Source: an uncultured virus (IMG/VR IMGVR_UViG_3300009873_000013)
Taxonomy: Duplodnaviria > Heunggongvirae > Uroviricota > Caudoviricetes
IMG/VR virus record: IMGVR_UViG_3300009873_000013
Span: 49,471-69,470 of that record
Reading direction: 5' to 3' (one strand)
Length of the DNA stretch: 20,000 nt
The position numbers and the translations under genes were made by a program. This document shows, piece after piece, positions 2,307 through 17,139 of this stretch; position 1 is the first letter of the stretch; each line of letters opens with the position of its first letter. Under the pieces are notes generated by a model. The model did not search any database. It worked only from the letters and a program-made list of their open reading frames with translations, and was not told the DNA's origin.

Positions 2307-2414
2307 CGTGGCACCTCGGGCGATCTTGGTTGGGGGCGATGCGTTAAGCCCTAGTCGAAATCGCGCGTGCCGCACAACAGCGCGTGCCGCACGCTGGTGC
2401 ACTTCGATCTTCGT

Positions 2415-2443
2415 TTGTCGTAGAAAAACTCCTTTGTTATCAT
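2415..2443 (+). promoter_or_regulatory. sigma70-like promoter for the rightward block
   Basis: TTGTCG (2415-2420), 17 nt spacer, TATCAT (2438-2443) with extended -10 TG, in an AT-rich divergent intergenic gap. Confidence 0.6.
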
Positions 2444-2479
2444 TTGCGGCGCACCAACCGAGAGCGCAGGAGCCAGGGC

Positions 2480-2713
2480 GTGAGCGTGGCCATCGATCCC
2501 GACAAGGAAGTGCTGCACCGGGTCAGTCGGCCCAGCAGCTTCGGTTGTCCCCGGCATCCCAACACCGTGGAACGCTGGATCCGGCAAGGCCTCAAGAGCC
2601 CGGTCACCGGCGAGATCGTGAAGCTCGAAGGCTTCTACGAAGGGGTCGAGTTGCACACCACGCGCGAGGCCTACCTGCGGTTCCTGCGTCGGCTCAACGG
2701 ACAGGACGAGTAA
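2480..2713 (+). CDS. DUF1580-like small HTH DNA-binding protein (excisionase/AlpA-like)
   Basis: GTG 2480 after AGGAG. The sequence 'HPNTVERWIRQGLK...VKLE...TTREAYLRFLRRL' matches the pattern of the Planctomycete DUF1580 family as I recall it. Confidence 0.7.
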   Translation: MSVAIDPDKEVLHRVSRPSSFGCPRHPNTVERWIRQGLKSPVTGEIVKLEGFYEGVELHTTREAYLRFLRRLNGQDE

Positions 2714-2738
2714 CCTGGCTCGAGCGGGAGGACGTCCG

Positions 2739-3191
2739 ATGCGCGACGACCAGTTCTTCGGCCCGTCGAAGTTCCACCCGCACGGCAGTGAGCCTACTCC
2801 CCCACCGAACAACCTCGAGGTGGAGCTCGTGGGCGGACCGCAAGATGGCCGTACGGTCGTCACCGGCGATCCGCTGCGGCAGTTCTTGATCGCGGCCGAG
2901 CCCTTGCCCGGGCGTCCCGACTGGAACCACGAGTGGGAGTACTTCGTCGAATACGACGAGGAGTTCGAGTGTTTCCGCGGCGTGACCGACAACGTGCCGC
3001 GACACATCGTCGACGCGGCCAACGCCTGGCACCGCTGGGCCGCGCGGATGGACGACGAGGTTGCGCCGATCTACGAGCACCGCGGCGACCTGCGGCACTA
3101 CGACTTCCTCGGCAACTTGACCCGCCGCCACCTCCGCGAAGGCGGACAGAGCGACGACGGCTTCGATCCCCGTAGTCTCGGTTCGTACTGA
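2739..3191 (+). CDS. Hypothetical protein (150 aa, acidic)
   Basis: GGAGG SD; GC3-rich codon usage; part of a tightly packed run of genes. Confidence 0.75.
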   Translation: MRDDQFFGPSKFHPHGSEPTPPPNNLEVELVGGPQDGRTVVTGDPLRQFLIAAEPLPGRPDWNHEWEYFVEYDEEFECFRGVTDNVPRHIVDAANAWHRWAARMDDEVAPIYEHRGDLRHYDFLGNLTRRHLREGGQSDDGFDPRSLGSY

Positions 3192-3202
3192 GGACGCACG
3201 CC

Positions 3203-3856
3203 ATGGCCACATCGCTCGATCGCCGCCAGTTTGCCGGCGCCGCTTGCTCGCTGTTTGGATTTCCGATTCCCGAAATGATCGCGCGGAGCTTCGGCGTTCT
3301 GCCTGGCGAGGGCGAGGTCGAGGTCGCCCGGCAACAGACGCTCTATGCCGACAATCTGAAGGTCTACTACACCTCGGCCCGCGACCTGCGCGTCGGTAAG
3401 ACGTTGGTCGTCGAGGCGGTGCAACCCAACTTGCCCTGGCCGGGGATCATCACGTCGTACTTCCTCGAGGACCAGCGCGACGCGAGCCGGTTCTTCACGC
3501 TGGAGAACGCGCTGCCGGCCTGGGGATTGATCAAGCGACTGCGAGCAGAGGGTGGTTGGAGCGGCGTGGCCGATCGTCTCTGCCAGCAAGCGGCTCTATT
3601 TTGGTTGGACGATTTCACCGCCGAGGAGCGGTCGGAACTGGCCGAGCAGATCCCGACGCCTGATCGTCTCGACGCCCTGTATGCGATCGAGGGAGCGGTC
3701 GATCACGCGAGCTACGGGCAACTTGCCTTTGCGGTCGGCTGGGTCGACAACACCTGGCACATGCACAAGCTGCTGGCCATCGTCGATCGTCCGCAGCCCG
3801 AGCGGATCGCCTTGTCATACCTCGGCAGCAAGCAGTACGAGCGGCTGATCGGATGA
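3203..3856 (+). CDS. Hypothetical protein with twin-arginine-like N-terminus (DRRQF)
   Basis: GAGG SD; MATSLDRRQFAGAACSLFG; ATGA overlap with the next gene. Confidence 0.75.
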   Translation: MATSLDRRQFAGAACSLFGFPIPEMIARSFGVLPGEGEVEVARQQTLYADNLKVYYTSARDLRVGKTLVVEAVQPNLPWPGIITSYFLEDQRDASRFFTLENALPAWGLIKRLRAEGGWSGVADRLCQQAALFWLDDFTAEERSELAEQIPTPDRLDALYAIEGAVDHASYGQLAFAVGWVDNTWHMHKLLAIVDRPQPERIALSYLGSKQYERLIG

Positions 3857-4350
3857 GCGACGCCCACGCAGAATCCAAGTCGCGTTGTCCCTACTGCCGC
3901 GAGCTCGGCCTGGTGAGCACGGTCCGACATCAAACAGCCACGTTGTCGACGCTCATGGAGACCGACAAATGGTACGACGAGCAAGGCCGTTTTCAGGTGG
4001 ACGATCCCAATACCTACACGACCGGCTATCGCTGCTCGCAAGGGCACGTCTGGTCGGAGAGTCGTCGAGCAGGGCGTAAGCTGATTCTCAAGCGGCACGA
4101 CGATACGAAGCCCGACCCTGAGCCGGAATCGATCGAAGATCTCGAGCTCAAGTTCAGGCACTTCGAGTCGTTGTCGGACAAATTTGCTATTGCCTTTGAG
4201 ATTGAACGCACGCGTCCCTATCGCTACCGACTCGAGATGAAGGGGCACGTCACTTACGAGTACGACACCGATCGGCCAATGCCCAACCGCTGGTGGCGCT
4301 TCTGGGCCTGGCTCCTCTTGGGCTGGACATGGACGCGAGTCGAGAAATGA
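3853..4350 (+). CDS. Hypothetical protein, N-terminal Zn-ribbon-like (CPYC ... CSQGH), Trp-rich C-terminus
   Basis: Translationally coupled (ATGA) at both ends. Confidence 0.7.
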   Translation: MSDAHAESKSRCPYCRELGLVSTVRHQTATLSTLMETDKWYDEQGRFQVDDPNTYTTGYRCSQGHVWSESRRAGRKLILKRHDDTKPDPEPESIEDLELKFRHFESLSDKFAIAFEIERTRPYRYRLEMKGHVTYEYDTDRPMPNRWWRFWAWLLLGWTWTRVEK

Positions 4351-4559
4351 GCGATCGCCAGTTCCCCCCGATCAACTTCAACATTGTGCAGCCCGAGCCG
4401 GGCGAGTTCCGCGAGCTCCGCTCCATCCTGCCCGAGACCGAGCAGGCGCACACCGCCGCGGTCGAAGAGCTCTACCGCCAAGAACAAGCGGCCCAGGAAG
4501 AGGCCGCCCGTCGTCGGGCCCGGATGCCCAGGAAACGCCAACCCGGGAGAAAACCATGA
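4347..4559 (+). CDS. Hypothetical protein (70 aa)
   Basis: Start MSDRQFPP at the ATGA overlap 4347-4350; stop overlaps the next ATG. Confidence 0.65.
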   Translation: MSDRQFPPINFNIVQPEPGEFRELRSILPETEQAHTAAVEELYRQEQAAQEEAARRRARMPRKRQPGRKP

Positions 4560-4795
4560 CAGGTGCCGAACAAGTCGTCCGCCAGCTCGGTCGCTTGGAC
4601 ACAGCGCTCTCGCAGATCAACGCCGCCGACGTCCTGGCCGAGCTCAGTATCGAGAAGCGGAAGGAAACCCTCGCCACGCTCGACGCCCTGGCGGCCAAGA
4701 TCGCCAGCACCCACCGCCGCATCATCGCCACGATCCCGACCGAAGAACCGGCCGTCGCCGAGCAACCAACGCCAGCCGGCTCGCCGGTGGACTAA
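4556..4795 (+). CDS. Hypothetical helical/coiled-coil protein (79 aa)
   Basis: GGAG SD, ATGA coupling. Confidence 0.65.
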   Translation: MTGAEQVVRQLGRLDTALSQINAADVLAELSIEKRKETLATLDALAAKIASTHRRIIATIPTEEPAVAEQPTPAGSPVD

Positions 4796-4846
4796 TCGGC
4801 CGATCAGTGGCTACAAAGTAGCCCACCCCCAACTCGAGGAGCCACC

Positions 4847-5506
4847 ATGCTCACCCGACGCTCTCTCCTGCAGGCCGGCGCCGCGGTGCTCGCCCTGCCG
4901 GCCACCCTGCTGGGCAAGACCAGTCGCAATCAGATCTCCTACAACGACTCGACCGGCGCCCTCGACCTCGCCACGGTCGGCGAGTTCCACCCGCCTCGCG
5001 CGCCGTTCGAAGTCGGCGTCACCGACTGCTCGGAGTACCTCTTCGACACGAAGACTGGCGACGTCTTGTTCCCGCTCTATCGCGAAGAAGGGACGCCGCC
5101 GCTTCTCACGCGCGACACGGCTGCCTACATCTTCAACATGATGAAGAACCGCGGCCTGGAGGTCCCGTACTTCTGCACGCCGATGCACAAGGTTCTAGCA
5201 ACGGGACGGGACGTCGGTAACGCCAAGGACGAACTGGCCCGCCTGCAAAACGTCAAAGCCGAGGCGTACGGCTTTCGACCCATGACCGACATGGAGTTCG
5301 TGCAGTACCACGGTCTCCTCGAGGTCGCCCGTCGACGGGAAGCGTTTTACGAAGAGTGGATCGAACACCGGGCGATCTACGACCTTGCCAACGGCCTACT
5401 CGTCCTCTTCGACAAGACCAACTGGCGGATCGCCTTCGCGCTCCTCGTGCCGAAGGAGCCCGCGCGCACGCTGATCACCCGTTGCCTCTACATCCAAGAC
5501 CATTGA
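4847..5506 (+). CDS. Hypothetical protein with Tat-like signal (TRRSLL + hydrophobic stretch)
   Basis: GAGGAG SD; MLTRRSLLQAGAAVLALPATLLG. Confidence 0.75.
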   Translation: MLTRRSLLQAGAAVLALPATLLGKTSRNQISYNDSTGALDLATVGEFHPPRAPFEVGVTDCSEYLFDTKTGDVLFPLYREEGTPPLLTRDTAAYIFNMMKNRGLEVPYFCTPMHKVLATGRDVGNAKDELARLQNVKAEAYGFRPMTDMEFVQYHGLLEVARRREAFYEEWIEHRAIYDLANGLLVLFDKTNWRIAFALLVPKEPARTLITRCLYIQDH

Positions 5507-5532
5507 CAGCCCCGGGGCTATCGACATAGACT
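5503..5532 (+). promoter_or_regulatory. sigma70-like promoter
   Basis: TTGACA (5503-5508), 18 nt spacer, TAGACT (5527-5532). Confidence 0.6.
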
Positions 5533-5581
5533 CCCGCCCAAGGAGCCTGGGCGATCTCAAGCGCGGCCGCCCACGCGCCCC

Positions 5582-5643
5582 GCCGCTCTGTGCACGACGC
5601 CGCCCCGAAACGACGTCGCCGCACTCCAGAGAGCGGCTTTTTT
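5582..5643 (+). terminator. Intrinsic terminator-like structure closing a short non-coding transcript
   Basis: GCCGCTCT (5582-5589) pairs with AGAGCGGC (5630-5637), followed by T6; large internal region. Confidence 0.55.
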
Positions 5644-5658
5644 CTTGCGCCCGTCCGC

Positions 5659-5686
5659 TTGACTCGCCTGACAGCACCGGTATTAT
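5659..5686 (+). promoter_or_regulatory. sigma70-like promoter
   Basis: TTGACT (5659-5664), 16 nt spacer, TATTAT (5681-5686). Confidence 0.55.
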
Positions 5687-5719
5687 CACGGCGTGCGCTG
5701 GCGACAGCGTGCCTCGAAC

Positions 5720-5768
5720 AGGAGAGGCGGGCCGAGTGCCTCTACGCTCACCGGCCCGCTTCTTTTTT
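5720..5768 (+). terminator. Intrinsic terminator/attenuator in the leader of the 5798 gene
   Basis: GCGGGCCG...CGGCCCGC stem followed by TTCTTTTTT. Confidence 0.6.
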
Positions 5769-5772
5769 GCGC

Positions 5773-5796
5773 TCACCACGCCGGCTGGAGTCTCAC
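5773..5796 (+). repeat. Bipartite RBS motif copy 1 (TCACCA...GGAGTCTCAC)
   Basis: TCACCA 5773-5778; GGAGTCTCAC 5787-5796; GTG 5798. Confidence 0.85.
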
Positions 5797-5797
5797 C

Positions 5798-6097
5798 GTG
5801 GCCAGCAACTTTGACGAGCACGGCTGCCACATCGCCAACGACAAAGAGTTCTACTTCCAGTGCTCCCTCTCCCGCCGCCGCGACGACGGCACCATCATCG
5901 TCCAGGTCGCCTGGATTCCCGCCAAATTCGCCGAAGCCGGTCGCGTCCTCAAAATCAAAGCCACCGACGGCTCCTGGGTCGACGGCTGGACCGTCACTAG
6001 CGTCGGCGCCGGCATGGTCGGCGTCCCCGACGTCCGCAAAGGCCGCCGCCAACACCGCAAACAAACAGGCGACAGCCTGCCCAAGGAGAGAAAATGA
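5798..6097 (+). CDS. Hypothetical protein (99 aa)
   Basis: GTG start after GGAG within the motif; in frame with ORF 5693..6097; ATGA overlap with the next gene. Confidence 0.7.
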   Translation: MASNFDEHGCHIANDKEFYFQCSLSRRRDDGTIIVQVAWIPAKFAEAGRVLKIKATDGSWVDGWTVTSVGAGMVGVPDVRKGRRQHRKQTGDSLPKERK

Positions 6098-6300
6098 TCT
6101 CGAGACGCTCGCTCCTCGCCGCCCTCCCCTTCTGCGGCTGGCTCAAGCCGGCGCCCGTCGACGGTCTCGCCGACAAAGTCGAGTCGTGGATGGGCGAAGC
6201 ACGTAGGTTCGACGAAGTTTGGGCCTTCCTCGACCAGTTCCAACACCGCGTCGGACTCATCGAGCCGCCCATCTACGGCAACAACCCTCACGCCACGTAG
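6094..6300 (+). CDS. Small protein with Tat-like N-terminus (SRRSLL)
   Basis: AAGGAG SD; MISRRSLLAALPFCGWL. Confidence 0.65.
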   Translation: MISRRSLLAALPFCGWLKPAPVDGLADKVESWMGEARRFDEVWAFLDQFQHRVGLIEPPIYGNNPHAT

Positions 6301-6587
6301 AAGCACGACCGAACCGACGGCTCGCGCGGCGATCGCTTCTCACCGGCCGCCATCTTGCGCAGGTCCACATCGCGATCGAGCAGACCGCCGCACGCACTGC
6401 ACCGTGGCGCCGAACCACGCGTCGATGAAAACAGGTGCCGCAGCGTGGGCTCCTTCGCCCCACAGTCCCGGCACGTCGCCATCCCAGGACCACGCCGACG
6501 CCCACCCTTCCGCCGCTTCTTGTGCTTCCGCTTCCGCGGACCACCGTGCGGCTTGTGATAGCTCGCGTGCTGAATCTTCCCCATCAT
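6288..6587 (-). CDS. Basic Zn-ribbon protein (CRDC...CSAC)
   Basis: MMGKIQH..., K/R-rich tract and two CxxC pairs; start position uncertain. Confidence 0.55.
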   Translation of the reverse strand: MMGKIQHASYHKPHGGPRKRKHKKRRKGGRRRGPGMATCRDCGAKEPTLRHLFSSTRGSAPRCSACGGLLDRDVDLRKMAAGEKRSPREPSVRSCFYVA

Positions 6588-7261
6588 GCCACCCAAAATT
6601 TCTCGACCGGCCATAACCCCTTTGTTGTTGCAGACGACGACTCGCAAGATAGCACGCCGCCCGCCCACCGACGACAAAAATTCCGTTGACGACGTTCGCC
6701 AAGAATCCTAATCTCACCTCCCGCCGACCTGACGGTGGGCCGGCTCACAGCCCCAACCCGTGGCAACGACGAAACACCGTCAGCCGTTCCTGTTCGGGTG
6801 TAGGCGGACAAGACGTCACGCGCGACGTACTCCGCCGTGCCAGAGAAAAGCCCCAGCGAGCTCGGGCCTGGCGTGTAATAAACCGTAAAGTGCACTCCCT
6901 GGAACCGGCCGATCGCTCCTTCTTTTACTAAGCGGTCGTGCGCGCCTGCCTCTCTACCGGTCAACTCGACCAAAGCGCTCGACATCAACGTCAATGCGCC
7001 CGCTTTCGTGACACCCTTCTCACTCCCGCCCAGACTCGAACACCCTCCAGACCACCCATCTCCACGACCACCAGCGCGAAAAAAATCTTCGCGGGGAACG
7101 TAATCACGGTCGAGGGGGGGCCGACGGGGCCTCCCGGTGGTCGATCGGTCCACGCAACGTGTTGCGGCCTATAGTCTTGCGTTGCGTCGACCGAACGGGG
7201 GTAGAAATGGCACGTTTGGCACACCATTTGCGAATGCATGCGGCCGCTATTCACCCCATCA

Positions 7262-7596
7262 TGTGGCCACGTGTGACGCGTAGGCGTGGCATCGTCCAGC
7301 AAGCGCGGTCTGCGGCCGAGTCGAGACCGCGGCGCGATCTATCCAGTCGCCACACGAGTAACGCTATTGAGTCGACACCATAGTGGCGCTTGCGTGGCGT
7401 GGCGTATGTCGTGGCATGGTAGGCGCTTGTGTGGGGTGATGCGTGGCGTAGGCGTGGCACGTGGTCAACGCGCGCCGTCTGCGCGATTCCCGAAAACCAA
7501 GTGTCCAAATTGGACCGCGGCCGGATTCTTTGGGCTACGTTCTATCGGCGTGACAGCGCCGGAGTTATCGGCGTGGCGTTGTGCTGTCACGTGGTC
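7262..7596 (+). repeat. Cluster of (C)GTGG(C/T) short direct repeats, including 2x GCGTAGGCGTGGCA
   Basis: About ten GTGGC/GTGGT cores between 7262 and 7596; the 14-mer is at 7277 and 7446; no credible ORF. Confidence 0.55.
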
Positions 7597-7672
7597 CTGG
7601 TCGAATTGACCGACGGCGGATGATTGAACTCGGCGGACGGTTTCCGATACGGTATCTGGGACCGTTTCACGT

Positions 7673-7695
7673 TTCACCCGTTTGCGGAGTCTCAC
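7673..7695 (+). repeat. Bipartite RBS motif copy 2
   Basis: TTCACC 7673-7678; GGAGTCTCAC 7686-7695; ATG 7699. Confidence 0.85.
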
Positions 7696-7698
7696 ACC

Positions 7699-8217
7699 AT
7701 GGCAGCGACGACAACTTTTCAGCTCACGACCGATACGACGATCGACGATGCGGCCGGCGCGTTGCGCGCTGGTCTCGTGCCGCTTGAAGCGTTCCTGGAA
7801 TGGCAGGCAGGCTACGTGAAGCGCCAGTCTGCGGCATCTGGCCGAGTGCGCGTCACGGTCTCGCCGAAGGGCATGATCGTACTCAATGGCGTGGTCGGCA
7901 AAGGCGAAGGATTCGCGCCCAATTTCACGCCGCGCGTTCTGGCCGATCTTCTGGACAACGCGGACGCCTTGATCGGTGCCGTTGTCGAGAATGCAGACAA
8001 GTCGCACGCGGCGGACGCCACGGTCAAGGATCTGAACCCCGCGTGGAAAAAGGCGAAGGATTCCAAGGCGAGCGAAGAGCAGCTCGCGAAGATCCCCAAG
8101 CTGGTCCCCGTGGCGCATCCGCGGGCAGGCAAGCCGGTGCTGAAGTACGGTAGCGCGGCGGAGCTGGCCGAGACCGTGAAGCGCCTTCAGGCGATTCGCG
8201 CCAAGCTGGTCGGCTAA
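7699..8217 (+). CDS. Hypothetical protein (172 aa, A/K-rich)
   Basis: ATG 7699 after the motif RBS; in frame with ORF 7624..8217. Confidence 0.8.
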   Translation: MAATTTFQLTTDTTIDDAAGALRAGLVPLEAFLEWQAGYVKRQSAASGRVRVTVSPKGMIVLNGVVGKGEGFAPNFTPRVLADLLDNADALIGAVVENADKSHAADATVKDLNPAWKKAKDSKASEEQLAKIPKLVPVAHPRAGKPVLKYGSAAELAETVKRLQAIRAKLVG

Positions 8218-8223
8218 CGCGGT

Positions 8224-8285
8224 CCGCACAACGCGCCGTGTGCCGCGCGAGTCTCCGCGGTCACCATCGCACGGCGCGCTTGCGG
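8224..8285 (+). promoter_or_regulatory. Intergenic RNA structure displaying GAGTCTC (loop) and TCACCA (bulge)
   Basis: CGCGCCGTGTG 8232-8242 pairs with CGCACGGCGCG 8268-8278; inner CCGCG/CGCGG stem with loop CGAGTCTC 8248-8255; TCACCAT 8261-8267 unpaired. Confidence 0.6.
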
Positions 8286-8297
8286 TTTGCGTTTCTC

Positions 8298-8319
8298 TTC
8301 ACCACGATAGGAGTCTCAC
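8298..8319 (+). repeat. Bipartite RBS motif copy 3
   Basis: TTCACCA 8298-8304; GGAGTCTCAC 8310-8319; ATG 8321. Confidence 0.9.
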
Positions 8320-8320
8320 C

Positions 8321-8575
8321 ATGAAACTGCGCTGGCGGAAGGTGTTCGACGGCTGCTGGCATGGGTTTGCCGAAGGTAACCCGAATGCCGTGGCCGAAGT
8401 CGAACAGTTCCCCTACGGACGGAAGCTGTGGTCAGCGGAGATCTGCGGCTACGGGCGTCTGACGTGGGGCTCTTACGGTCTGTTCACGTTTCGGGAAGCG
8501 AAGGCACTCTGCGAGCGCAGGCTGCCGGAGTTCTATCCCGCTGTCACCACGAAGGAGTCTCACCCATGCGACTGA
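8321..8575 (+). CDS. Hypothetical phage protein (84 aa)
   Basis: MKLRWRKV...TFREAKALCERRL; motif RBS upstream. Confidence 0.75.
   Translation: MKLRWRKVFDGCWHGFAEGNPNAVAEVEQFPYGRKLWSAEICGYGRLTWGSYGLFTFREAKALCERRLPEFYPAVTTKESHPCD
8544..8563 (+). repeat. Bipartite RBS motif copy 4 (inside the 3' end of the upstream gene)
   Basis: TCACCA 8544-8549; GGAGTCTCAC 8554-8563; ATG 8566. Confidence 0.9.
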
Positions 8576-9252
8576 GCGAGAAGTACCGGCCCAAGACGCT
8601 GGAAAGTGTCGTGGGTCAACCGTGCGTCGTGCCGCTGCGGCGATTCGTCGAGCGGCCCTACGCCTGCTGTCTGTTGTTCGAGGGACCGCCAGGCTGCGGC
8701 AAGACCACGTCGGCCCTGGCACTGGCGGCCGAGTTGGGTTGCCTCGACGAACTGTCGGGGCTGCACGTGGTCACCAGCACCGAGCTGACGATCGACCGCT
8801 GTCGTGACCTGTTCGAGAGCACGTTGCGACTGAAACCCATGCTGGGCGACGGCTGGCGGGTGCTGGTCGTCGAGGAACTAGAGGCGCTGACCAGTGTGCA
8901 GGTGCAGCGGTTCCTCAAGGTGGCGCTCGAGCAGCGCTTGCCGGACCGATGCGTCGTGGTGGCCACGTCGAACGGCGCCGGGGCCATCCAGAAGGCCGAC
9001 AAGGCGCTGCTGCAGCGGTTTCGTATCTACCGCTTCGAGGCCGGCAAGATGTTCGCTGCTGCGGCCGAGGGCTACCTGGCCGACGTGTGGCAGCGTGAGA
9101 CCGGCCAGGATCGTTTGCCGGTCGGCTGGCGGACGTGGGGCACCGACGGCGACGGCGAGTTCTCGCTGCGAGTGGCGCTCGATCGGCTGCAATGCGAAGC
9201 CGAACTGTGCGACGTGCGAGAGCACGGTCCCGCGGCGAGGTGCGTGGCATGA
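8566..9252 (+). CDS. Clamp-loader-clade AAA+ ATPase (RFC small subunit/DnaX/RarA-like)
   Basis: N-terminal 'LSEKYRPKTLESVVGQ', Walker A GPPGCGKT, Walker B VLVVEE, sensor-1 ATSN, 'ALLQRF' Arg finger; 228 aa, lacks a collar domain. Confidence 0.85.
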   Translation: MRLSEKYRPKTLESVVGQPCVVPLRRFVERPYACCLLFEGPPGCGKTTSALALAAELGCLDELSGLHVVTSTELTIDRCRDLFESTLRLKPMLGDGWRVLVVEELEALTSVQVQRFLKVALEQRLPDRCVVVATSNGAGAIQKADKALLQRFRIYRFEAGKMFAAAAEGYLADVWQRETGQDRLPVGWRTWGTDGDGEFSLRVALDRLQCEAELCDVREHGPAARCVA

Positions 9253-9683
9253 TCCACACGAAGCTACCACGCACGACCGGTCGAAGGCCCACAGCCCGAC
9301 GCGTCGATGCTGCTGAGAAGCATCTGGCGCAAGAGCGTGATCGGTACGCGCTGTTCGCCGAAGAGGTCGCGGCAGAGCAGCCAACGGCGGTCGAGCGCGT
9401 GGAGGGCTTCGACGCCGGCTTCGAAGCATGGTGGCAGGAGCATCGCTTGAAACATGCCCAACTGTGGCGCAAGGCTCGAGCGTTGTTCCATGCCTTGCCT
9501 ACCGAGCAGCGTCGTGCCGCCGACTCGTACTGGCGACGCCGGGTCTACCCGCTGGATCCGATCTACCTGATCGCTCTTGTACGACGGATCGCCGACGGGA
9601 GCTTCGACGTCGTGAAAGAGGATGCCGAGATCGATCGACTACGCCGACTCGGCGAAGCCCACAGAAAGGGGATTGTGCCTTGA
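9249..9683 (+). CDS. Hypothetical protein (144 aa)
   Basis: ATGA overlap with the ATPase gene; MIHTKLPRTTG... Confidence 0.7.
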   Translation: MIHTKLPRTTGRRPTARRVDAAEKHLAQERDRYALFAEEVAAEQPTAVERVEGFDAGFEAWWQEHRLKHAQLWRKARALFHALPTEQRRAADSYWRRRVYPLDPIYLIALVRRIADGSFDVVKEDAEIDRLRRLGEAHRKGIVP

Positions 9684-9838
9684 GTGACGACACTTTCACG
9701 CTGAAGAACGATCCGCCGCGGCCGAAGCCGTGGCGTGCTGAAGATGAACCGTGCCGCCAGCGCGTGCTCCTCGAGGGGCTCGACTGCTGCGCCGGCCAAC
9801 TGAACCTATTCGAGGAGGAACCAAGTGATGGCTCGTAG
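9680..9838 (+). CDS. Small acidic protein with QLNLF putative beta-clamp-binding motif
   Basis: TTG start overlapping the previous stop (TTGA), AAAGGGG upstream; ...AGQLNLFEEE... Confidence 0.55.
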   Translation: MSDDTFTLKNDPPRPKPWRAEDEPCRQRVLLEGLDCCAGQLNLFEEEPSDGS

Positions 9839-10133
9839 GTCGAACGCGGATGTCTGGGCTGACTCCATGCTGCGTCAAATCAGGTCTCAGCTTTGGACTG
9901 TTTGCTCTGACACAAAGCCCAAATCCAAGAAGCTCGTGGAGCGGCTCGAACGCGCCTATACCCAGGCAAACTTCGATCCAGACATCGAGTGCCCGGAGGG
10001 CTCATGGTCGCTTGACCAGGCCGAAGTTCTCGACGCGATCAGGCGGCTGATCTGCAGTGAGCGTGACCTGCCGATCCTGACGCATGACGAAATCGAAGCC
10101 AAGTATCGACAGGAGGACCAACGCGATGAGTAA
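9828..10133 (+). CDS. Hypothetical protein (101 aa)
   Basis: GAGGAGG SD upstream of ATG 9828. Confidence 0.7.
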   Translation: MARRSNADVWADSMLRQIRSQLWTVCSDTKPKSKKLVERLERAYTQANFDPDIECPEGSWSLDQAEVLDAIRRLICSERDLPILTHDEIEAKYRQEDQRDE

Positions 10134-10521
10134 CCACACACCGGGACCGTGGCAGGTTCTCGACAGGGACCTCGGCGTAAATGGAGGGCGAGGGCTCTAC
10201 ATCGTCAGTGAGCGTGAAGTCACGCCGACGCTGGCCAAAATTCGAGACGTTGGCAGCGCGACCGAGGCGAATGCGCGGTTGTTCGCATGGGCGCCTGAAC
10301 TGCTGCAGGCGTGCGACTGGGCGGACACGGCGTTCGCCGTGCTGAACCTTGGCGGCGACGAGATCACGCCCCAGGCACGTGCAGAGATGCGTGATGCGTG
10401 GGCGCTGGTCAACCACGCCATGGCGAGGGCCAAGGGACGCGACGATCCGTTCGCCGAGGTCAACCCGGAAGTCTCGAAGGCCGCGATCGAGAAGGCCCGG
10501 CGCGAGATGTCGGGCGCCTGA
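10126..10521 (+). CDS. Phage 'HTPGPW' family hypothetical protein
   Basis: MSNHTPGPW ... EANARLFAWAPELLQAC, the common phage pattern 'HTPGPW...ANARLIAAAPELL'; AGGAGG SD. Confidence 0.8.
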   Translation: MSNHTPGPWQVLDRDLGVNGGRGLYIVSEREVTPTLAKIRDVGSATEANARLFAWAPELLQACDWADTAFAVLNLGGDEITPQARAEMRDAWALVNHAMARAKGRDDPFAEVNPEVSKAAIEKARREMSGA

Positions 10522-10543
10522 GTCACAACCGAGGGGCAACCTA

Positions 10544-10564
10544 TTCACCACAAGGAGTCTCACG
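10544..10564 (+). repeat. Bipartite RBS motif copy 5
   Basis: TTCACCA 10544-10550; GGAGTCTCACG 10554-10564; ATG 10565. Confidence 0.9.
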
Positions 10565-11128
10565 ATGGCGAAACAGAAGTCACTCTATCACCGGCCCGTG
10601 CCGGCCATCCTGGTCCGCGTCGAGAAGCCGAACCGCATGTACGGCGGCTGCGATTGCTTCCACGTCTACGGCCGCTTCGTGATCTACGACTCGTCGAAAC
10701 GCGAGGACGTCACGTTCGTCCACAAGTACGGCGACAAGTGGCCGCCCAAGGAAGACCTCGACCTGGAAGATCTCTTCGTCTGGTCGCAGGGGGATACGGA
10801 TGCCGAGCCCGATCGGACCCGGCTCTATGGCTGGGAGCTCCGCTACAAGCGCTACTCCTGCACGCTCTCGGACGTCGAGCGGATGCACAGCACGCTCAAG
10901 TTCCTCGATCGCGGCCTCGATCGCGAGATTGCGCGGACTGGTCATCCGCAGACGTTCGGCGCCTGGATGTGTTACGTGGCCCTGGCGTCGAAGGCCGAAG
11001 GGTTCGTGTTCGAAGGGGAGCACGGCTACTCGATCCTGACGCCCGGCGAGTCGATCCGCCGCATCGACAACCTGACCTACGAGCAGTTCCGTTGCAACCA
11101 GCGTAAGGCCGAAGAAGCGGCCGCTTAA
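10565..11128 (+). CDS. Hypothetical protein (187 aa)
   Basis: ATG 10565 after the motif RBS; in frame with ORF 10349..11128. Confidence 0.8.
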   Translation: MAKQKSLYHRPVPAILVRVEKPNRMYGGCDCFHVYGRFVIYDSSKREDVTFVHKYGDKWPPKEDLDLEDLFVWSQGDTDAEPDRTRLYGWELRYKRYSCTLSDVERMHSTLKFLDRGLDREIARTGHPQTFGAWMCYVALASKAEGFVFEGEHGYSILTPGESIRRIDNLTYEQFRCNQRKAEEAAA

Positions 11129-11140
11129 CGTCCACACGTA

Positions 11141-11187
11141 GCCCGCGAAGCGCGTCACCGGGATTCGCCTCCCGGCGCGGGCCTTTT
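11141..11187 (+). terminator. Intrinsic terminator-like branched hairpin
   Basis: GCCCGCG 11141-11147 pairs with CGCGGGC 11176-11182; CCGGGA/TCCCGG inner stem; TTTT 11184-11187. Confidence 0.55.
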
Positions 11188-11190
11188 CCG

Positions 11191-11218
11191 TTGCATCGGG
11201 CGACGGTGTCGCTATAAC
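11191..11218 (+). promoter_or_regulatory. sigma70-like promoter for the methyltransferase-helicase module
   Basis: TTGCAT (11191-11196), 16 nt spacer, TATAAC (11213-11218). Confidence 0.5.
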
Positions 11219-11242
11219 TCGACAACTAAGGAGCTATCTCGC

Positions 11243-12250
11243 ATGCGCCACGCAGGACGCATGAAGGGCGGGTTCTACCCCGCGCCTTCGGACGCCGTTG
11301 CGCTCGCACTGCGCCATCTACGGCCGCCGAGCGAGCCAGACGCCCCCTTTGCCATCCTCGACCCGTGCGCCGGCGAGGGCGAGGCGATCGGCCAGTTGGC
11401 CGATGGTCTCGGCTGCCGGCCTGACTTGGTCCACGCGATCGAGCTCGAGTCGAGTCGAGCGGAGAAGTGCCGCCAGCGCTTGCCCGAAGCGCAGCTTCTC
11501 GCGCCGGCCAGTTACTTCGGTTGTCGCATTCGCAGTTGGTCCTTCTCGCTCGTGTGGTGCAATCCACCCTTCGACGACGAGATCGGCGGCGGCGAACGCG
11601 TCGAGGGTCAGTTCTTGGGTTCGGCCCTGGCGCTCCTGGCGCCCAAGGGCATCCTCTGTCTGGTCTGCCCTGAGCGGGTCTGGCGCGACGGCGCGATCCG
11701 CCGCGTGCTCTTGACCTGGTTCGACGACGTCTCGTGCGTCGAGTTCCCCGCGGACTGCCGGCGGTTCGGCGAGGTGATCGTATTCGGCATCAAGCGCCGT
11801 GAGATGACCAACCCGGACAAGCGGACTTGGGGCGACCTGGTCACTGGTCGGACGGAGTACACGCTGCCGAAGAGCAACGGGCCGCGTGGTCTGTGGCGGA
11901 AGATCGAGCTCACTCCCGAAGAGCTCGACACAGCGTTCGCTCAGTCACCGCTGCGACGGATGCTCGAGCCACCACCCGAGCGACCTCTACCGCGTCCGCC
12001 GATGGCGTTGGGCAAGGGACACCTGGCGTTGCTCCTGGCCTCGGGGCACCTCGACGGGCTGGTCTGCCCGCCGGGCGAACCACCGCACGTCGTCCGCGGC
12101 ACGGCCAAGAAGGTCGAAGAGGTGACCGACGTCGAAGAGGACGAGAGCAAGGGGACGCGGACCACCAAGACCACCTACACCGAGCGGATCACGTTGACCG
12201 TTCGGGCCGTCGGCGCCGATGGCGTGATCCACACGTTTGCTCAGGAGTAA
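11243..12250 (+). CDS. DUF6094-like class I SAM-dependent (N6-adenine-type) DNA methyltransferase
   Basis: 'GFYPAP', motif I 'LDPCAGEG', motif IV 'NPPF', C-terminal 'PPMALGKGHLALLLASGHLDGLV' typical of this family; AAGGAG SD. Confidence 0.85.
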   Translation: MRHAGRMKGGFYPAPSDAVALALRHLRPPSEPDAPFAILDPCAGEGEAIGQLADGLGCRPDLVHAIELESSRAEKCRQRLPEAQLLAPASYFGCRIRSWSFSLVWCNPPFDDEIGGGERVEGQFLGSALALLAPKGILCLVCPERVWRDGAIRRVLLTWFDDVSCVEFPADCRRFGEVIVFGIKRREMTNPDKRTWGDLVTGRTEYTLPKSNGPRGLWRKIELTPEELDTAFAQSPLRRMLEPPPERPLPRPPMALGKGHLALLLASGHLDGLVCPPGEPPHVVRGTAKKVEEVTDVEEDESKGTRTTKTTYTERITLTVRAVGADGVIHTFAQE

Positions 12251-12254
12251 CCCC

Positions 12255-12815
12255 ATGATCGACGGACCACGAGCAGTCGTCACGATCGGCGAGCAGTGTT
12301 ACACGCTGCACCTGGACGCCGTGGCGATCCAGGACACATCGCAATACAGCCAGCCGATCCAGATTCTCTCGGTCGCCGGCCCAGCCACCAGCGTCAAGGC
12401 AGTGACGGCCGGCTTCCAGACCAACCGCGCTGGCGTGTCGCAGGTGACGTTTCACGACGTCGAGGGACGCAAGCCGTTCCGCGGACACCGCGGCTACGAG
12501 CCCTACAACTGCTACAAGCACCGCCTGGGCCTCGACACGTGGCATCTGGTGGTCATCAGCACCGACCAGAACCTGCTGCTGACCGTCAGCGACGAGGCGA
12601 TCTGGCGGCACCTCACGAGCGATCGCTACACGACGCCGCTCTTACGGACCTGGATGCCGTGGCTGGTATCCGAGCTCCGCGAGAAGGGGCACGTGCGAGA
12701 GCACCAGTGCGTCAACTGCCAGACAGCGCACCTCTACCTCACTGAAGGCAAGCTCGACGAGATCGTGTCGTTGGGCATCAACCGCGGCGAGCTGCGCATG
12801 GAAGCCGCCGCCTAA
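12255..12815 (+). CDS. Hypothetical protein of the methyltransferase-helicase module
   Basis: AGGAG SD; contains 'TTPLLRTW'; located between the DUF6094-like gene and the helicase. Confidence 0.75.
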   Translation: MIDGPRAVVTIGEQCYTLHLDAVAIQDTSQYSQPIQILSVAGPATSVKAVTAGFQTNRAGVSQVTFHDVEGRKPFRGHRGYEPYNCYKHRLGLDTWHLVVISTDQNLLLTVSDEAIWRHLTSDRYTTPLLRTWMPWLVSELREKGHVREHQCVNCQTAHLYLTEGKLDEIVSLGINRGELRMEAAA

Positions 12816-12834
12816 CTACCGAAGGGTCAAACGC

Positions 12835-13497
12835 ATGAAGAAACGCTTTCGAGCGGTCGACCTGTTCTGTGGTGCCGGTGGCACCACGACCGGGGCGATC
12901 CAGTCTGGCCACGTTGAGGTTGTGGCCGCGATCAATCACTGGCGCGTGGCCTGCCTCAACCACGGGCCAGGTCATGTCGTCGTGCCCTGGATCTACCAGA
13001 TCATGGGCCGCGGCGCCGGTCGTCACATTCCGCCAGAGCAACCACTGCCGACGATCATCGCGCAACGCAACTGTTTCGGAGTCGTGGCGCCGTTCTTGAT
13101 CGATGTTCACAACAGGCGTCGCGACGATACGACGACCAGCGTCGACGATCCGATGCCGACGATCGTGACGAAGCCTGGCAACTCAGTCTGCCTGCCGTTC
13201 ATCACGAAGTACAACTCGAACGGCGGCGCTGAGTCGGTCGAACAGCCACTCTCGACGGTGACCACGAAGCACCGCCACGGCCTGGCGATCGTGCACCTGA
13301 TCGAGACCATGAACGAACTGGGGATCGCCGACATCGGCTTCCGCATGCTCGACGTCGATGAGCTCGCGGCCGCCCAAGGTTTCCCTGTCGGCTACGACTT
13401 GCACGGCAGCAAGGCTGAGCAAATCAAGCAAGTCGGCAACAGTGTCCACACGGCCGTCGCTCGTGCGCTCTGTGAAGCGATCGCGACCGCGGACTGA
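12835..13497 (+). CDS. C5 cytosine methyltransferase homolog lacking the catalytic core (in-frame internal deletion; possibly a pseudogene)
   Basis: Motif I DLFCGAGG, motif IX RMLDVDELAAAQGFP and motif X QIKQVGNSV are present; no catalytic (S)PxC/PC and no ENV motif; three 'xPL/MxTI/V' repeats. Confidence 0.8.
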   Translation: MKKRFRAVDLFCGAGGTTTGAIQSGHVEVVAAINHWRVACLNHGPGHVVVPWIYQIMGRGAGRHIPPEQPLPTIIAQRNCFGVVAPFLIDVHNRRRDDTTTSVDDPMPTIVTKPGNSVCLPFITKYNSNGGAESVEQPLSTVTTKHRHGLAIVHLIETMNELGIADIGFRMLDVDELAAAQGFPVGYDLHGSKAEQIKQVGNSVHTAVARALCEAIATAD

Positions 13498-13509
13498 AAG
13501 GAGACCACC

Positions 13510-13761
13510 ATGCCCAAGACTGAGTGCCGCCATTGCGTCGAGTGCGAAGGGATGTCACACCACTGGATCGACAACCCCGACTTCGGCAACGACGAAGCGC
13601 CGGAAGAGTCGCGCAAGTGGCCGGTCGTCTGCAAACACTGCGAGACGTTCGGTGACGAGTGCTGGGAGTGCCACGGCACAGGAACGGAATACGAGAGCAG
13701 CTTACACGACGACGAAGTCGAAGAGTGCCCAACCTGCGGAGGAGAAGGTTACATCCAGTGA
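13510..13761 (+). CDS. Small Cys-rich Zn-finger protein (DnaJ-like CxxCxGxG repeats)
   Basis: CVECEG, CKHC, CWECHGTG, CPTCGGEG; AAGGAG SD. Confidence 0.75.
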   Translation: MPKTECRHCVECEGMSHHWIDNPDFGNDEAPEESRKWPVVCKHCETFGDECWECHGTGTEYESSLHDDEVEECPTCGGEGYIQ

Positions 13762-13778
13762 CCGACCGATCAATCGTT

Positions 13779-13796
13779 TTCACCACACGGAGTCTC
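13779..13796 (+). repeat. Bipartite RBS motif copy 6
   Basis: TTCACCA 13779-13785; GGAGTCTC 13789-13796; ATG 13799. Confidence 0.85.
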
Positions 13797-13798
13797 TG

Positions 13799-15943
13799 AT
13801 GCTCGAAGAAATCACCAACCTGGAGGGCTACATGGCCCGCTACGGCACGCTCCTCGGCGAGCAAGCCCAAGCGGCCGTGCATCCCTTACACGTGCCGGGG
13901 AAACATCCGCCGGCGGGCGTCATCAGTCTGCGCGAGCCGTTTGAAGCGCAGGCCCACGTCATCGCCGCGTCCACCAAAGGCCTCGGCGAGCACAAGTCGC
14001 TCACGATCTGCGGAGAGTGCGGCGTGGGCAAGACGCTCTGCGGCATGCTCACCGTCGACAACCACGCCGGCGTGAAGCCCTACCGAGCGCTCGTGTTCTG
14101 CCCGCCCCACCTGGTCGGCAAGTGGAAGCGCGAACTCGAAGAGACGATCCCCGCCTGTCAGGCCACGATCATCGACGACTATCGCCAGGTCACCCGACAC
14201 AACTGGCGGCAGAAGCCGACCCTGCCCGAATGGTGGATCGTCTCGAACAACCGGGCCAAGCTCGGCGCCAAGTGGCGTTCCTCTTACACGACGCGTCCCA
14301 CGCCGCCTGGCGTGGCCTTCTGCACCCACTGCGATCACCCGGTCTTGAAGAAGGACAGCGAGACCCAACAGCTCGTGCCCATGCCGCTCGAGGAGCTCGA
14401 CAAGAAGCGGCTCTTCTGCGAGGAGTGCGGCAGTGCCCTGTGGACTTACACCCACGATCTCGATCGCTGGCCCGTGGCCACCTACATCCACAAGCACCTC
14501 AAGGGCGTGTTCCGCTACCTGATCGTCGACGAATGCCACGAAGAGAAGGGCGAGGACACCGCTCAGGCCAACGCGATGGGCTCGCTGGCCTCGGCCTGTC
14601 GCTACGTGATCGCCATGACCGGCACGCTGATCGGCGGCTACGCCGACCATTTGCGGACGCTCCGGTTTCGCCTCTCGCCGACGTCGCTGGTCGAGGAGGG
14701 CTTCGGCTGGTCCGACCGGATGCCGTTCAACGAGCGCTACGGCCGCATCGAACGCAAGGTGACCACGAAGGAGGACCTGGGCAGCGGCAAGACCAACCGC
14801 CAAAGCCGCGGGTCGAGCCAGCGGACGGTGAAGTACGTCCGCCCGGGCATCGTGCCCACGTTCTTCGGTCGTCACCTGATGGGCAACACGGTCTTCCTGG
14901 GCCTCGAGGAAGTGGCCGACAACCTGCCGTCGCTGACCGAAGAGGTCGTGCCGGTCGCCATGGACTCGGAGCAACGGTCCGAGTATCGGCGGATCGAGGA
15001 GCTGCTGACCGCGGCGCTCAAGCAAATGGTCGCCAAAGGGGACAAGCGGCTCCTGGGCGCCATGCTGCAGACGCTCCTGTGCTACTGCGACAAGCCGTAC
15101 GGCTGGGGCGAGATCGGCTACTACGAAAACAGCGACGACAGCGACGCTCGTGTGTGGGTCCCCGTCGTCGAACCAGCCAATCTCGACGCCGATCTGCTGC
15201 GGCCCAAGGAGGCCGAGCTCGTGCGGCTCATCTCGGCCGAGAAGCGGGAGAACCGCCAGACCTGGCTCTTCACGACGATGACCGACAAGCGCGACGTGAC
15301 CGAGCGGATGCAAGTCCTGCTCGAGCAAGCCGGCATCAGCTCGACGATCTTGCGGGCCAACGTCGAGACGAAGAAGCGCGAGGACTGGATCGCCAAGCAC
15401 GGCCCCGAGCACGACTGCATCATCAGCCATCCGCAGTTGATCCAGACCGGCATCGATCTGTTCGACAAGAAGGGCAACTACAACTTCCCGACGATTGTCT
15501 GGTATCTGACCGGCTACAACCTCTTCACCTTGCGGCAGGCCAGCCGGCGAGCCTGGCGGATCGGCCAGCAGCAGCCGTGCAAGGTGCTCTACCTCTACTA
15601 CGAAGAGACCATGCAGGCCCGGGCCATGACGCTGATGGGCACGAAGCTCACGGCGGCCGAGGCGATCGAGGGCAAGTTCTCGGCCGAAGGACTGGCGGCC
15701 ATGGCCGGCACCGAGGGCTCGATGGAAATGGCCCTGGCCCGCTCGCTCGTGAATCAGCTCGACGACTTGGACGCGTCGCGCTGCTGGAAGAAGGTCGGCG
15801 CCAAGGCCTCGCCGGCCCCAGCCATGCCCCAGGCACGCCCCGAGCCGTCGCTCGTGCGGCGTCCGCTGCGGCCCAAGAAGCAGGCCCCGCCCAAACCAGT
15901 GTTCCAGCAAATGTCCCTGTTCGATGACTTGGCGGTCGCGTGA
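13799..15943 (+). CDS. SF2 (SNF2/DEAD-like) helicase with Zn-ribbon insertion (714 aa)
   Basis: Walker A GECGVGKT, DECH, motif III MTGT, 'TGIDL', motif VI QASRRAWRIGQ; CTHC...CEEC insertion; start ATG 13799 at the motif RBS. Confidence 0.9.
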   Translation: MLEEITNLEGYMARYGTLLGEQAQAAVHPLHVPGKHPPAGVISLREPFEAQAHVIAASTKGLGEHKSLTICGECGVGKTLCGMLTVDNHAGVKPYRALVFCPPHLVGKWKRELEETIPACQATIIDDYRQVTRHNWRQKPTLPEWWIVSNNRAKLGAKWRSSYTTRPTPPGVAFCTHCDHPVLKKDSETQQLVPMPLEELDKKRLFCEECGSALWTYTHDLDRWPVATYIHKHLKGVFRYLIVDECHEEKGEDTAQANAMGSLASACRYVIAMTGTLIGGYADHLRTLRFRLSPTSLVEEGFGWSDRMPFNERYGRIERKVTTKEDLGSGKTNRQSRGSSQRTVKYVRPGIVPTFFGRHLMGNTVFLGLEEVADNLPSLTEEVVPVAMDSEQRSEYRRIEELLTAALKQMVAKGDKRLLGAMLQTLLCYCDKPYGWGEIGYYENSDDSDARVWVPVVEPANLDADLLRPKEAELVRLISAEKRENRQTWLFTTMTDKRDVTERMQVLLEQAGISSTILRANVETKKREDWIAKHGPEHDCIISHPQLIQTGIDLFDKKGNYNFPTIVWYLTGYNLFTLRQASRRAWRIGQQQPCKVLYLYYEETMQARAMTLMGTKLTAAEAIEGKFSAEGLAAMAGTEGSMEMALARSLVNQLDDLDASRCWKKVGAKASPAPAMPQARPEPSLVRRPLRPKKQAPPKPVFQQMSLFDDLAVA

Positions 15944-15949
15944 GCGGCC

Positions 15950-15955
15950 TATAAT
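15950..15955 (+). promoter_or_regulatory. -10 box of the sRNA/recombinase promoter
   Basis: Perfect TATAAT 7 nt before the first base of the RNA stem; -35 box not clear. Confidence 0.6.
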
Positions 15956-15962
15956 CAGTTGC

Positions 15963-16054
15963 GAGCGGCCAGCCGGCTAGCGTTGGTGAAGCGCGAATAG
16001 CCCGGGGTGTGACGTGAGACTCCACCTCGGGACTCGCCGGCTGGCCGCTCTTTT
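15963..16054 (+). ncRNA. Candidate c4/CI-like antisense small RNA (three-way junction, two guide arms)
   Basis: Perfect 15-bp closing stem (15963-15977 with 16036-16050) followed by TTTT; arm 1 carries TGGTGAA (15984-15990); arm 2 (CCCGGGGTG/CACCTCGGG) carries GTGAGACTCC (16014-16023); both are complementary to the 7-copy RBS motif. Confidence 0.8.
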
Positions 16055-16073
16055 CACCACACGAGGAGTCTCA
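16053..16073 (+). repeat. Bipartite RBS motif copy 7 (cis target directly after the sRNA)
   Basis: TTCACCA 16053-16059; GGAGTCTCA 16065-16073; ATG 16076. Confidence 0.9.
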
Positions 16074-16075
16074 AG

Positions 16076-16933: not shown

Positions 16934-17109
16934 CCGGCTTGCCGCTGCACGTCCACCACGGCATCGACCGGGTCGCTGTTGACGGCCGAGAAGCGTTCGT
17001 TGCCCACGGTCCAGCTACAGACCCATAGGTCGGTGTCCTCATCCCAGCAGAGCGAGAACGCCTCGCCGTTGGTTTTCATCTGGCGGATCATCCGCTCGAG
17101 ACCATCCAT
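16930..17109 (-). CDS. Hypothetical protein (59 aa)
   Basis: Hand-translated MDGLERMIRQMKTNGEAFSLCWDEDTDLWVCSWTVGNERFSAVNSDPVDAVVDVQRQAG*; GGAG SD; the stop shares CTAG with the recombinase stop. Confidence 0.6.
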   Translation of the reverse strand: MDGLERMIRQMKTNGEAFSLCWDEDTDLWVCSWTVGNERFSAVNSDPVDAVVDVQRQAG

Positions 17110-17139
17110 GCCGGCGTCTCCATCACAGGCCGGTATGTG

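Follow-up and report, generated by a model that had tools for sequence, protein, structure and literature searches.

The phage region and its small RNA

The stem-loop analyzed here occupies positions 8218–8291 on the plus strand of the window, the whole stretch of 20,000 nucleotides under analysis, which forms the last 20 kb (49471–69470) of a 69,470-bp IMG/VR virus genome. The record carries 144-bp direct terminal repeats, has a G+C content of 65%, and is estimated to be 100% complete. Its minus strand codes for a terminase, a head protein, a tail fibre, RecE/RecT-like proteins, and a DnaC-like loader. Early or replication-type genes form a block on the plus strand, from about position 2400 to 17300 of the window; their products include an AAA/clamp-loader-like ATPase, two DNA methyltransferases, an SNF2-type helicase, and a serine recombinase. 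The only sequencing sample with the phage was an activated-sludge metagenome (one contig, 0 differences), which is probably its source, and the contigs from this sample contained no variants of the region. No run was listed as an RNA run holding the phage; one possible RNA run covered 3 of 30 bins, with unrelated contigs.

The stem-loop is located between two small plus-strand genes. The upstream gene (7699–8217) encodes 172 amino acids and ends with a TAA stop codon at 8215–8217, so its mRNA would bear the hairpin at or near the 3′ end. The downstream gene (8321–8575) encodes 84 amino acids and is followed by the AAA ATPase gene (8566–9252). A search of the ESM Atlas returned no family for the protein of either small gene. 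Directly upstream of gene 7699 lies a stretch of about 1.4 kb (6300–7690) that is probably the replication origin. None of its 14 candidate ORFs has a coding signature: their GC3 is at most 0.75 and their GC2 at least 0.53, compared with a GC3 of 0.75–0.90 and a GC2 of about 0.41–0.51 in nine neighbouring genes (5798, 6094, and seven behind the target sites described below). The same stretch contains iteron-like direct repeats, with two copies of GCGTAGGCGTGGCA and related copies of 18–28 nt at 7198–7596, and the cumulative GC skew reaches its minimum near position 7100.

The partner of the stem-loop is a candidate small RNA (sRNA) encoded on the plus strand at 15962–16053. It is 92 nt long, with three stems and a UUUU tail, and is preceded by a TATAAT box at 15950–15955. 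A perfect 15-bp outer stem encloses two inner hairpins, the loops of which are UUGGUGAA (a′, 15983–15990) and GUGAGACUCC (b′, 16014–16023), the complements of two short sequences that we call half-sites a and b. The predicted fold has a free energy of −61.1 kcal/mol (z −6.0) and places both arms in loops, where they open cheaply, at 2.2 and 2.9 kcal/mol.

The pattern TCACC-N(2–14)-GAGTCTC was found seven times on the plus strand, against an expectation of 0.07. Each of these TCACC-N-GGAGTCTC sites ends 2–5 nt ahead of a start codon (5798, 7699, 8321, 8566, 10565, 13799, and 16076), and all seven ORFs have a clear coding signature. Site 1 (5773–5794) precedes the GTG at 5798, and site 2 (7674–7693) is the ribosome-binding site (RBS) of gene 7699–8217. 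Site 3 (8299–8317), which reads TCACCA-N6-GGAGTCTC, is the RBS of gene 8321–8575, and its start codon is the ATG at 8321. Site 4 stands before the AAA ATPase gene, site 5 (10545–10561) before the ATG at 10565, and site 6 (13780–13796) before the SNF2-type helicase gene (ATG 13799). Site 7 (16054–16072) lies directly behind the sRNA terminator and precedes the serine recombinase gene (ATG 16076). All seven sites, each on the plus strand, fall within one 11-kb early or replication region of the 69-kb phage, and the other 49 kb of the genome contain no further copy of TCACC-N-GAGTCTC. Judged by sequence, we regard the sRNA and its seven-site regulon as real. In the proposed mechanism, the sRNA would normally pair a′ with TCACCA and b′ with GGAGTCTC(AC) at the seven ribosome-binding sites, and pairing there should block translation.

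Three further features of the regulon were observed. At site 6 (13790–13819), a second a-type sequence, TCACCAAC, lies 15 nt downstream of b, within the first codons; it has an 8-bp match to the a′ loop and stands in the order b then a. Ahead of site 1 there is a promoter-like TTGACT-16-TATTAT (5659–5686), followed by a leader hairpin (5726–5759) with a TTCTTTTTT tail and then by the site itself. In the 17-nt loop of this leader hairpin, a degenerate b-like word, GAGTGCCTC, precedes TCACC; the b-then-a order and the spacing of 5 nt are those of the stem-loop at 8218–8291. The segment 5659–5798 looks like an attenuator ahead of the first sRNA-gated gene. The outer stem of the sRNA (15963–16050) is also a perfect 15-bp inverted repeat around 58 bp, and the adjoining serine recombinase gene (16076–16933) has similarity to DNA invertases. 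As an idea only, inversion of the 58 bp would give the sRNA the sequence of its own targets; no inverted form of the segment, which is very short for inversion, occurs in contigs from the source sample.

Structure of the stem-loop and its exposed half-sites

The stem-loop starts immediately 3′ of the TAA stop codon of gene 7699–8217 and is 74 nt long. RNA folding yielded four stacked stems of 5, 5, 10–11, and 5 bp, with a minimum free energy (MFE) of −43.2 kcal/mol (z −3.43); 0 of 200 shuffled sequences were equally stable, and the MFE structure was the same as the centroid structure. Two stems of 5 bp each (8218–8222/8287–8291 and 8224–8228/8281–8285) form the base. They are followed by an outer stem of 10–11 bp (8232–8242/8268–8278) and an inner stem of 5 bp (8243–8247/8256–8260), which closes the apical loop. 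In the MFE structure, G8242 pairs with U8261 and not with C8268; the two forms seem near in energy. The original prediction described a hairpin with an 11-bp outer stem and a 5-bp inner stem at 8224–8297. The fold agrees with the hairpin and with both stems, but the structure is larger than the predicted span, with stems from 8218 on.

The apical loop CGAGUCUC (8248–8255) contains half-site b, GAGTCTC, at 8249–8255 and complements 7 nt of the b′ loop of the sRNA. Half-site a, TCACCA, complements the a′ loop and lies at 8261–8266, within a 7-nt bulge of the 3′ strand (UCACCAU, 8261–8267). All 7 bases of half-site b are complementary to sRNA loop positions 16016–16022, and all 6 bases of half-site a to positions 15984–15989. 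The apical loop and the bulge are the two largest unpaired stretches of the hairpin, and they hold exactly the two half-sites. Both placements, GAGTCTC in the apical loop and TCACCA in a bulge, had been predicted and were found in the sequence and in the RNA fold. The half-sites stand in the order b then a; the predicted reversal relative to the RBS copies is true against all seven of them. Because the order is swapped, the half-sites of the hairpin are antiparallel to both sRNA loops at once. The stem is followed by the T-rich tract TTTCTCTT (8292–8299), an interrupted tract with 6 T in 8 positions; it overlaps the first base of target site 3, so a T-rich tract running into the third motif copy is present as described.

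A first alternative is that the hairpin is an ordinary terminator or a 3′ stabilizer of the gene 7699–8217 message and that its motifs are idle, being chance occurrences or leftovers of recombination. The frequency of the motif pair bears on this reading. The swapped pattern GAGTCTC-N(1–30)-TCACCA is expected 0.03 times per window (both strands) and was found three times: on the opposite strand of the sRNA gene, at site 6 together with a coding TCACCA, and in the hairpin. GAGTCTC itself occurs 13 times in the whole 69-kb genome, comprising the seven RBS sites, the sRNA gene, the hairpin, and four others, and these four are the only copies outside the sRNA system in 139 kb (both strands). A chance origin of the motif pair in the hairpin is therefore unlikely on these sequence counts. 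Neither the sRNA gene nor any a-b site shows sequence homology to the hairpin that would explain the motifs as leftovers. Alignment of the hairpin with the reverse complement of the sRNA gene revealed no similarity beyond the motifs; the hairpin thus contains no recognizable inverted copy of the sRNA gene, and a recent duplication does not account for 13 intact motif bases. The coincidence of the motifs with the two largest unpaired stretches likewise argues against idle motifs.

Other properties are those of a terminator: the stem is G+C-rich, stands directly behind a stop codon, and has a T-rich tract after it. A hairpin with a T tract also precedes two other target sites (the leader hairpin 5726–5759 and the sRNA). 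To these points must be added that one unrelated locus reaches a similar predicted binding energy for the sRNA, as given below. We calculated a d score after d'Aubenton-Carafa. The value was −2.5 for the whole hairpin and −6.6 without the outermost stem, compared with +4.9 for the sRNA terminator, +8.8 for the leader hairpin at 5726–5759, and +4.8 for another hairpin at 5618–5638. A simple terminator scan did not call the hairpin at 8218–8291. The hairpin is thus at best a leaky terminator, and a borderline one. The gap between the hairpin and the ATG at 8321 is too short for a promoter, and a promoter scan found none there, so the downstream replication-type genes must be transcribed through the hairpin. 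Considering both sides, we regard the idle-motif terminator as somewhat unlikely. If the hairpin is merely a terminator, it is ordinary, and the interest rests with the sRNA regulon itself.

The opposite strand was also considered, on which the same DNA would specify a miniature second antisense RNA with an AUGGUGA bulge and a GAGACUC loop. The minus strand folds nearly as well (−42.4 kcal/mol, z −2.97), and its arms would stand in the order a′-b′, the same as in the sRNA. However, a scan found no promoter-like site on the minus strand and none was seen by eye in 8300–8380; the U tract present behind the stem on the plus strand is absent on the minus strand; and every gene in the surrounding part of the genome is encoded on the plus strand. 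We consider a functional opposite strand extremely unlikely. The same very low probability is given to an element acting at the DNA level, either a palindromic operator or a single-strand initiation hairpin of the adjoining origin-like region. The 11-bp inverted repeat would suit such a role, as would its distance of about 600 bp from the region without coding signature that has the iteron-like repeats and the GC-skew minimum. On the other hand, at up to one mismatch the genome contains no further copies of the stem arms, each other excepted, although operator sites would be repeated, and a DNA element leaves the sRNA motifs in the unpaired parts unexplained.

Predicted docking of the sRNA and its possible role

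Nested cofolding cannot represent loop contacts, and an RNAup-like sum was used instead. The energy of the duplex was added to the cost of opening both partners, calculated by means of constrained partition functions that included 70 nt of flanking context per side. In this model the two arms bind independently of each other, and neither the strain nor the geometry of loop-loop helices is taken into account. The cofolding check proposed with the original prediction was of little discrimination: the gain was 0 kcal/mol for the hairpin and likewise for the true sites 1, 3, 4, 5, and 7.

The RNAup-like total for the hairpin was −10.4 kcal/mol, compared with −9.1 to −14.5 kcal/mol for the seven RBS sites, and the predicted binding is no weaker than that of four of the seven true targets. 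Opening both half-sites of the hairpin costs 1.6 kcal/mol, the lowest value, against 3.6 to 5.2 kcal/mol at the RBS sites. Half-site b in the apical loop contributes a duplex of −9.5 kcal/mol at an opening cost of 1.1 kcal/mol, and half-site a in the bulge contributes 5–6 bp at a cost of 0.5 kcal/mol. The paired arms of the hairpin are short, each at its minimum length (7 + 6 bp), versus 8–11 + 6–8 bp at the RBS sites. Extension of the arms into the stems would require about 17 kcal/mol of opening for a net −0.3 kcal/mol, so binding of the sRNA should leave the hairpin folded.

We also scanned both strands of the genome for two-arm candidates; ranking these by raw duplex energy alone was dropped as too noisy. 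Among the best 350 of 9003 candidates, the hairpin scored −9.8 kcal/mol, inside the range of the RBS sites, and only one unrelated locus (−10.2 kcal/mol) reached this range. As an unrelated locus has a similar predicted energy, the energy alone is not diagnostic.

Taken together, it is somewhat more likely than not that the hairpin is a functional sRNA docking site of some kind. The original prediction of a loop-loop docking site that either titrates the sRNA or lets it control termination is supported in part: the half-sites are single-stranded in the predicted fold, and the predicted binding lies in the range of the RBS sites. Its termination half came out weaker. An sRNA-switched terminator or attenuator, as in phage P4, would mean that docking alters read-through into the genes at 8321–15943. 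In its favour, the downstream genes depend on read-through, and the a′ arm could gain 3 bp in the 3′ strand of the outer stem. P4 also offers a precedent: according to one report, pairing of its CI RNA with seqA and seqC causes premature termination and keeps the replication genes off (PMC4825925). The d score of −2.5, against +4.8 to +8.8 for the three neighbouring hairpins, nevertheless marks a weak terminator, and the predicted contacts spare every stem. The absence of a gain on nested cofolding and the cost of extending the arms into the stems point in the same direction. The precedent itself differs, in that the P4 sites adjoin the CI gene and act through translation and Rho, and they are not known to act on an intrinsic hairpin. 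The RNA-switched terminator claim is thus weakened, and we consider this reading quite unlikely. A decoy is favoured over P4-like control of termination because the terminator is borderline and the stems would stay intact on binding.

The position of the hairpin, 33 nt upstream of site 3, allows another role, that of an auxiliary site that raises occupancy of the gene 8321 RBS or makes a double-stranded cleavage site. Besides this proximity, mixed pairing of the hairpin's half-site b with half-site a of site 3 was predicted at −9.3 kcal/mol. We found no specific support for the auxiliary role, though, and the other six sites appear to work without such a neighbour; it is very unlikely in our view.

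Our preferred reading, held tentatively, is that the hairpin is a decoy or competitor docking site for the two-loop antisense sRNA of the phage. The stem-loop at the 3′ end of the gene 7699–8217 message would be an extra and very accessible docking site. Transcripts ending at or crossing the hairpin would capture the sRNA while no gene is silenced, and, once the region beside the putative origin is transcribed, this capture would buffer or relieve the repression of replication-type genes. We infer that the sRNA and the hairpin meet and bind, with these consequences. Some findings speak against a decoy, among them the minimum length of the arms and the similar energy at one unrelated locus. The swapped order is a geometry used by none of the seven accepted targets, and G+C-rich hairpins behind genes are ordinary in a genome of 65% G+C. 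Since the message probably has true sites 1 and/or 2 already, the hairpin would add only modestly to the titration by each transcript.

The bolder form of the decoy reading, in which the hairpin serves specifically as an anti-sRNA, placed at the 3′ end of the first gene past the origin-like region, seems to us doubtful. If it is true, transcription of gene 7699–8217 would titrate the repressor RNA and turn on the seven sRNA-gated replication and recombination genes as a set. This would constitute an all-RNA positive-feedback switch in a phage lineage without catalogued RNA families, with the two loops of a c4-like RNA for immunity or copy control captured in a colinear antiparallel geometry.

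In summary, an sRNA beyond the Rfam models appears to gate seven genes of the replication module in an orphan environmental phage of high G+C content, and the phage would supply a built-in competitor in the form of the hairpin. Should this element titrate the sRNA, one phage would provide a compact sRNA/anti-sRNA pair. In that case, the order of the target sequences and their presentation in loops could separate gene silencing from soaking-up of the regulator.

Relatives and comparison with known systems

By its sequence matches, the phage appears to be nearly an orphan. Of 8000 candidates in the helicase protein search, 664 reached E ≤ 1e-20; the nearest helicase, encoded on a 7.8-kb contig of a Logan assembly, is 76% identical, and the others are at most 58% identical. 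Helicase identities to GenBank phages are at most 36%. In IMG/VR, the helicase alone gave no match and a helicase alignment gave 15 loci at 30–57% identity; the best match of the AAA ATPase there has 31% identity, and the serine recombinase had none. The terminase has one 39% match, on a 6.7-kb contig in IMG/VR, and a 25% match to a Vibrio phage in GenBank. The DNA at 7600–9300 had no match among GenBank phages.

Neither the sRNA nor the hairpin was recovered in these relatives. When the sRNA model (R1) was run on 20 sources (380,194 bases), only the window's own copy was significant, and it was found in 0 of 5 whole relative records. The proteins of genes 7699 and 8321 have no homologue in the helicase-related loci. 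The AAA gene occurs in only 1 of 16 loci, with no hairpin upstream of it there (L040). Rfam searches of the helicase-related loci returned two tRNAs only.

Pattern scans were performed as well. The pattern combining the sRNA b′ sequence with a and b had one match in IMG/VR, which lies in coding sequence and is likely due to chance, and 48 matches in metagenomes, each with at most a single a-b site. Of these 48, 11 were set aside as an unrelated leader family before a transposase-like gene. The a′ + b′ pattern gave 23 matches in 185,579 species genomes, of which 0 fit R1 at E ≤ 1. The pattern of a hairpin plus a site gave at least 80 loci in IMG/VR, and the arrangement described here was found in 0 among the matches listed. 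One further candidate was rejected: it has three GGAGTCT ribosome-binding sites, two of them with TCACCA, and its 22-kb record contains no matching sRNA (L050).

Two side observations come from these searches. The leader family (metagenome contigs L060, L063, L064, L065, L074, L076, L078, L080, L083, L101, and L091) surfaced because it fits the search pattern. About 150 nt are conserved, with GAGACTCC upstream of TCACCA-N-GGAGTCTC-ATG; the leader could sequester the RBS in cis. The downstream ORF is transposase-like by translation in L080, and the family has no Rfam match at E ≤ 0.1. Three IMG/VR phages of the helicase group have repeated intergenic signals of their own. L046 carries 9 copies of the word TTTCCACCAC, 8 of them within a palindrome of the GGTGGTGGATTTCCACCACC type, and in L042 a promoter/operator-like block with GTGTGCTAT at its end occurs 7 times. 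In L043, 10 ribosome-binding sites read GGAGGATGA, 4 of which are preceded by TTCCTGTAG; the 68-kb record contains no complementary copy of this TTCCTGTAG + GGAGGATGA tag.

A cmscan comparison, suggested with the original prediction, returned no Rfam family for the hairpin or the sRNA at E ≤ 10. The hairpin region (8190–8330) had no match to C4, IsrK, or any other related Rfam family at E ≤ 10. Searched in the whole window and in 15930–16090 alone, the sRNA did not match C4 (RF01695) with either the gathering score or E ≤ 10 as the cutoff, and no Rfam family of any kind matches it at E ≤ 10.

The c4-type antisense RNAs are known as single-operon immunity switches of P1-like phages. As in the C4 RNA, the outer stem of the sRNA encloses hairpins exposing a′ and b′, and the a-b target covers the RBS. 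Unlike in P1, there are seven targets instead of one, and the sRNA has no detectable C4 membership. In P1, the a1/b1 site lies directly upstream of c4 in the same transcript, whereas 7.7 kb and at least 10 genes separate the hairpin, which has a T-rich tail, from the sRNA downstream of it; the sRNA gene has its own TATAAT box. The a1/b1 element of the P1/P7 c4 systems is the nearest precedent for the hairpin. In the catalogue of Weinberg et al. (2010), the c4-a1b1 motif is given with 87 representatives and no RF number (PMC2864571). The legend of its drawing labels a1, b1, P1, and P2 (PMC2864571, supplement file 6), and from this legend and the alignment rows, a1 would lie 5′ of P1 and b1 in the P2 loop (PMC2864571). 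On that layout, the hairpin would resemble c4-a1b1 as a structured non-RBS copy of both sRNA target sequences with at least one half-site in a loop. It would differ in its order, b then a rather than a then b, and in being a single composite of loop and bulge rather than P1 plus P2.

With the P4 CI RNA, as portrayed in the report cited above, the system shares a small phage RNA that pairs with short complementary stretches in a replication-gene message. CI has one antisense region and two flanking targets by its own gene; the present sRNA has two arms, and its seven RBS targets extend over 11 kb, and, unlike in P4, the hairpin is predicted to remain folded when bound. IsrK of the Gifsy-1 prophage is described in the same report as a c4/CI-like RNA whose target in trans is a longer message; alternative hairpins and a Rho-independent terminator are involved (PMC4825925). 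Unlike the sRNA and hairpin, IsrK activates translation by remodelling the message.

Compared with an intrinsic terminator, the hairpin has the G+C-rich stem-loop immediately behind a stop codon and the T-rich tract that follows, but it is 74 nt long, has a 7-nt bulge and an interrupted T tract, and scores below its three neighbours. The closest functional analogy would be the sRNA sponges, such as 3′ETS-leuZ, SroC, and the prophage-encoded AgvB, which are often 3′-end or spacer RNAs with target sequence that titrate an sRNA. These sponges have been shown experimentally and bind Hfq-type seed regions. The hairpin shares with them the idea of a carried target sequence, while its capture is predicted and would use two loop contacts with a c4-type RNA.
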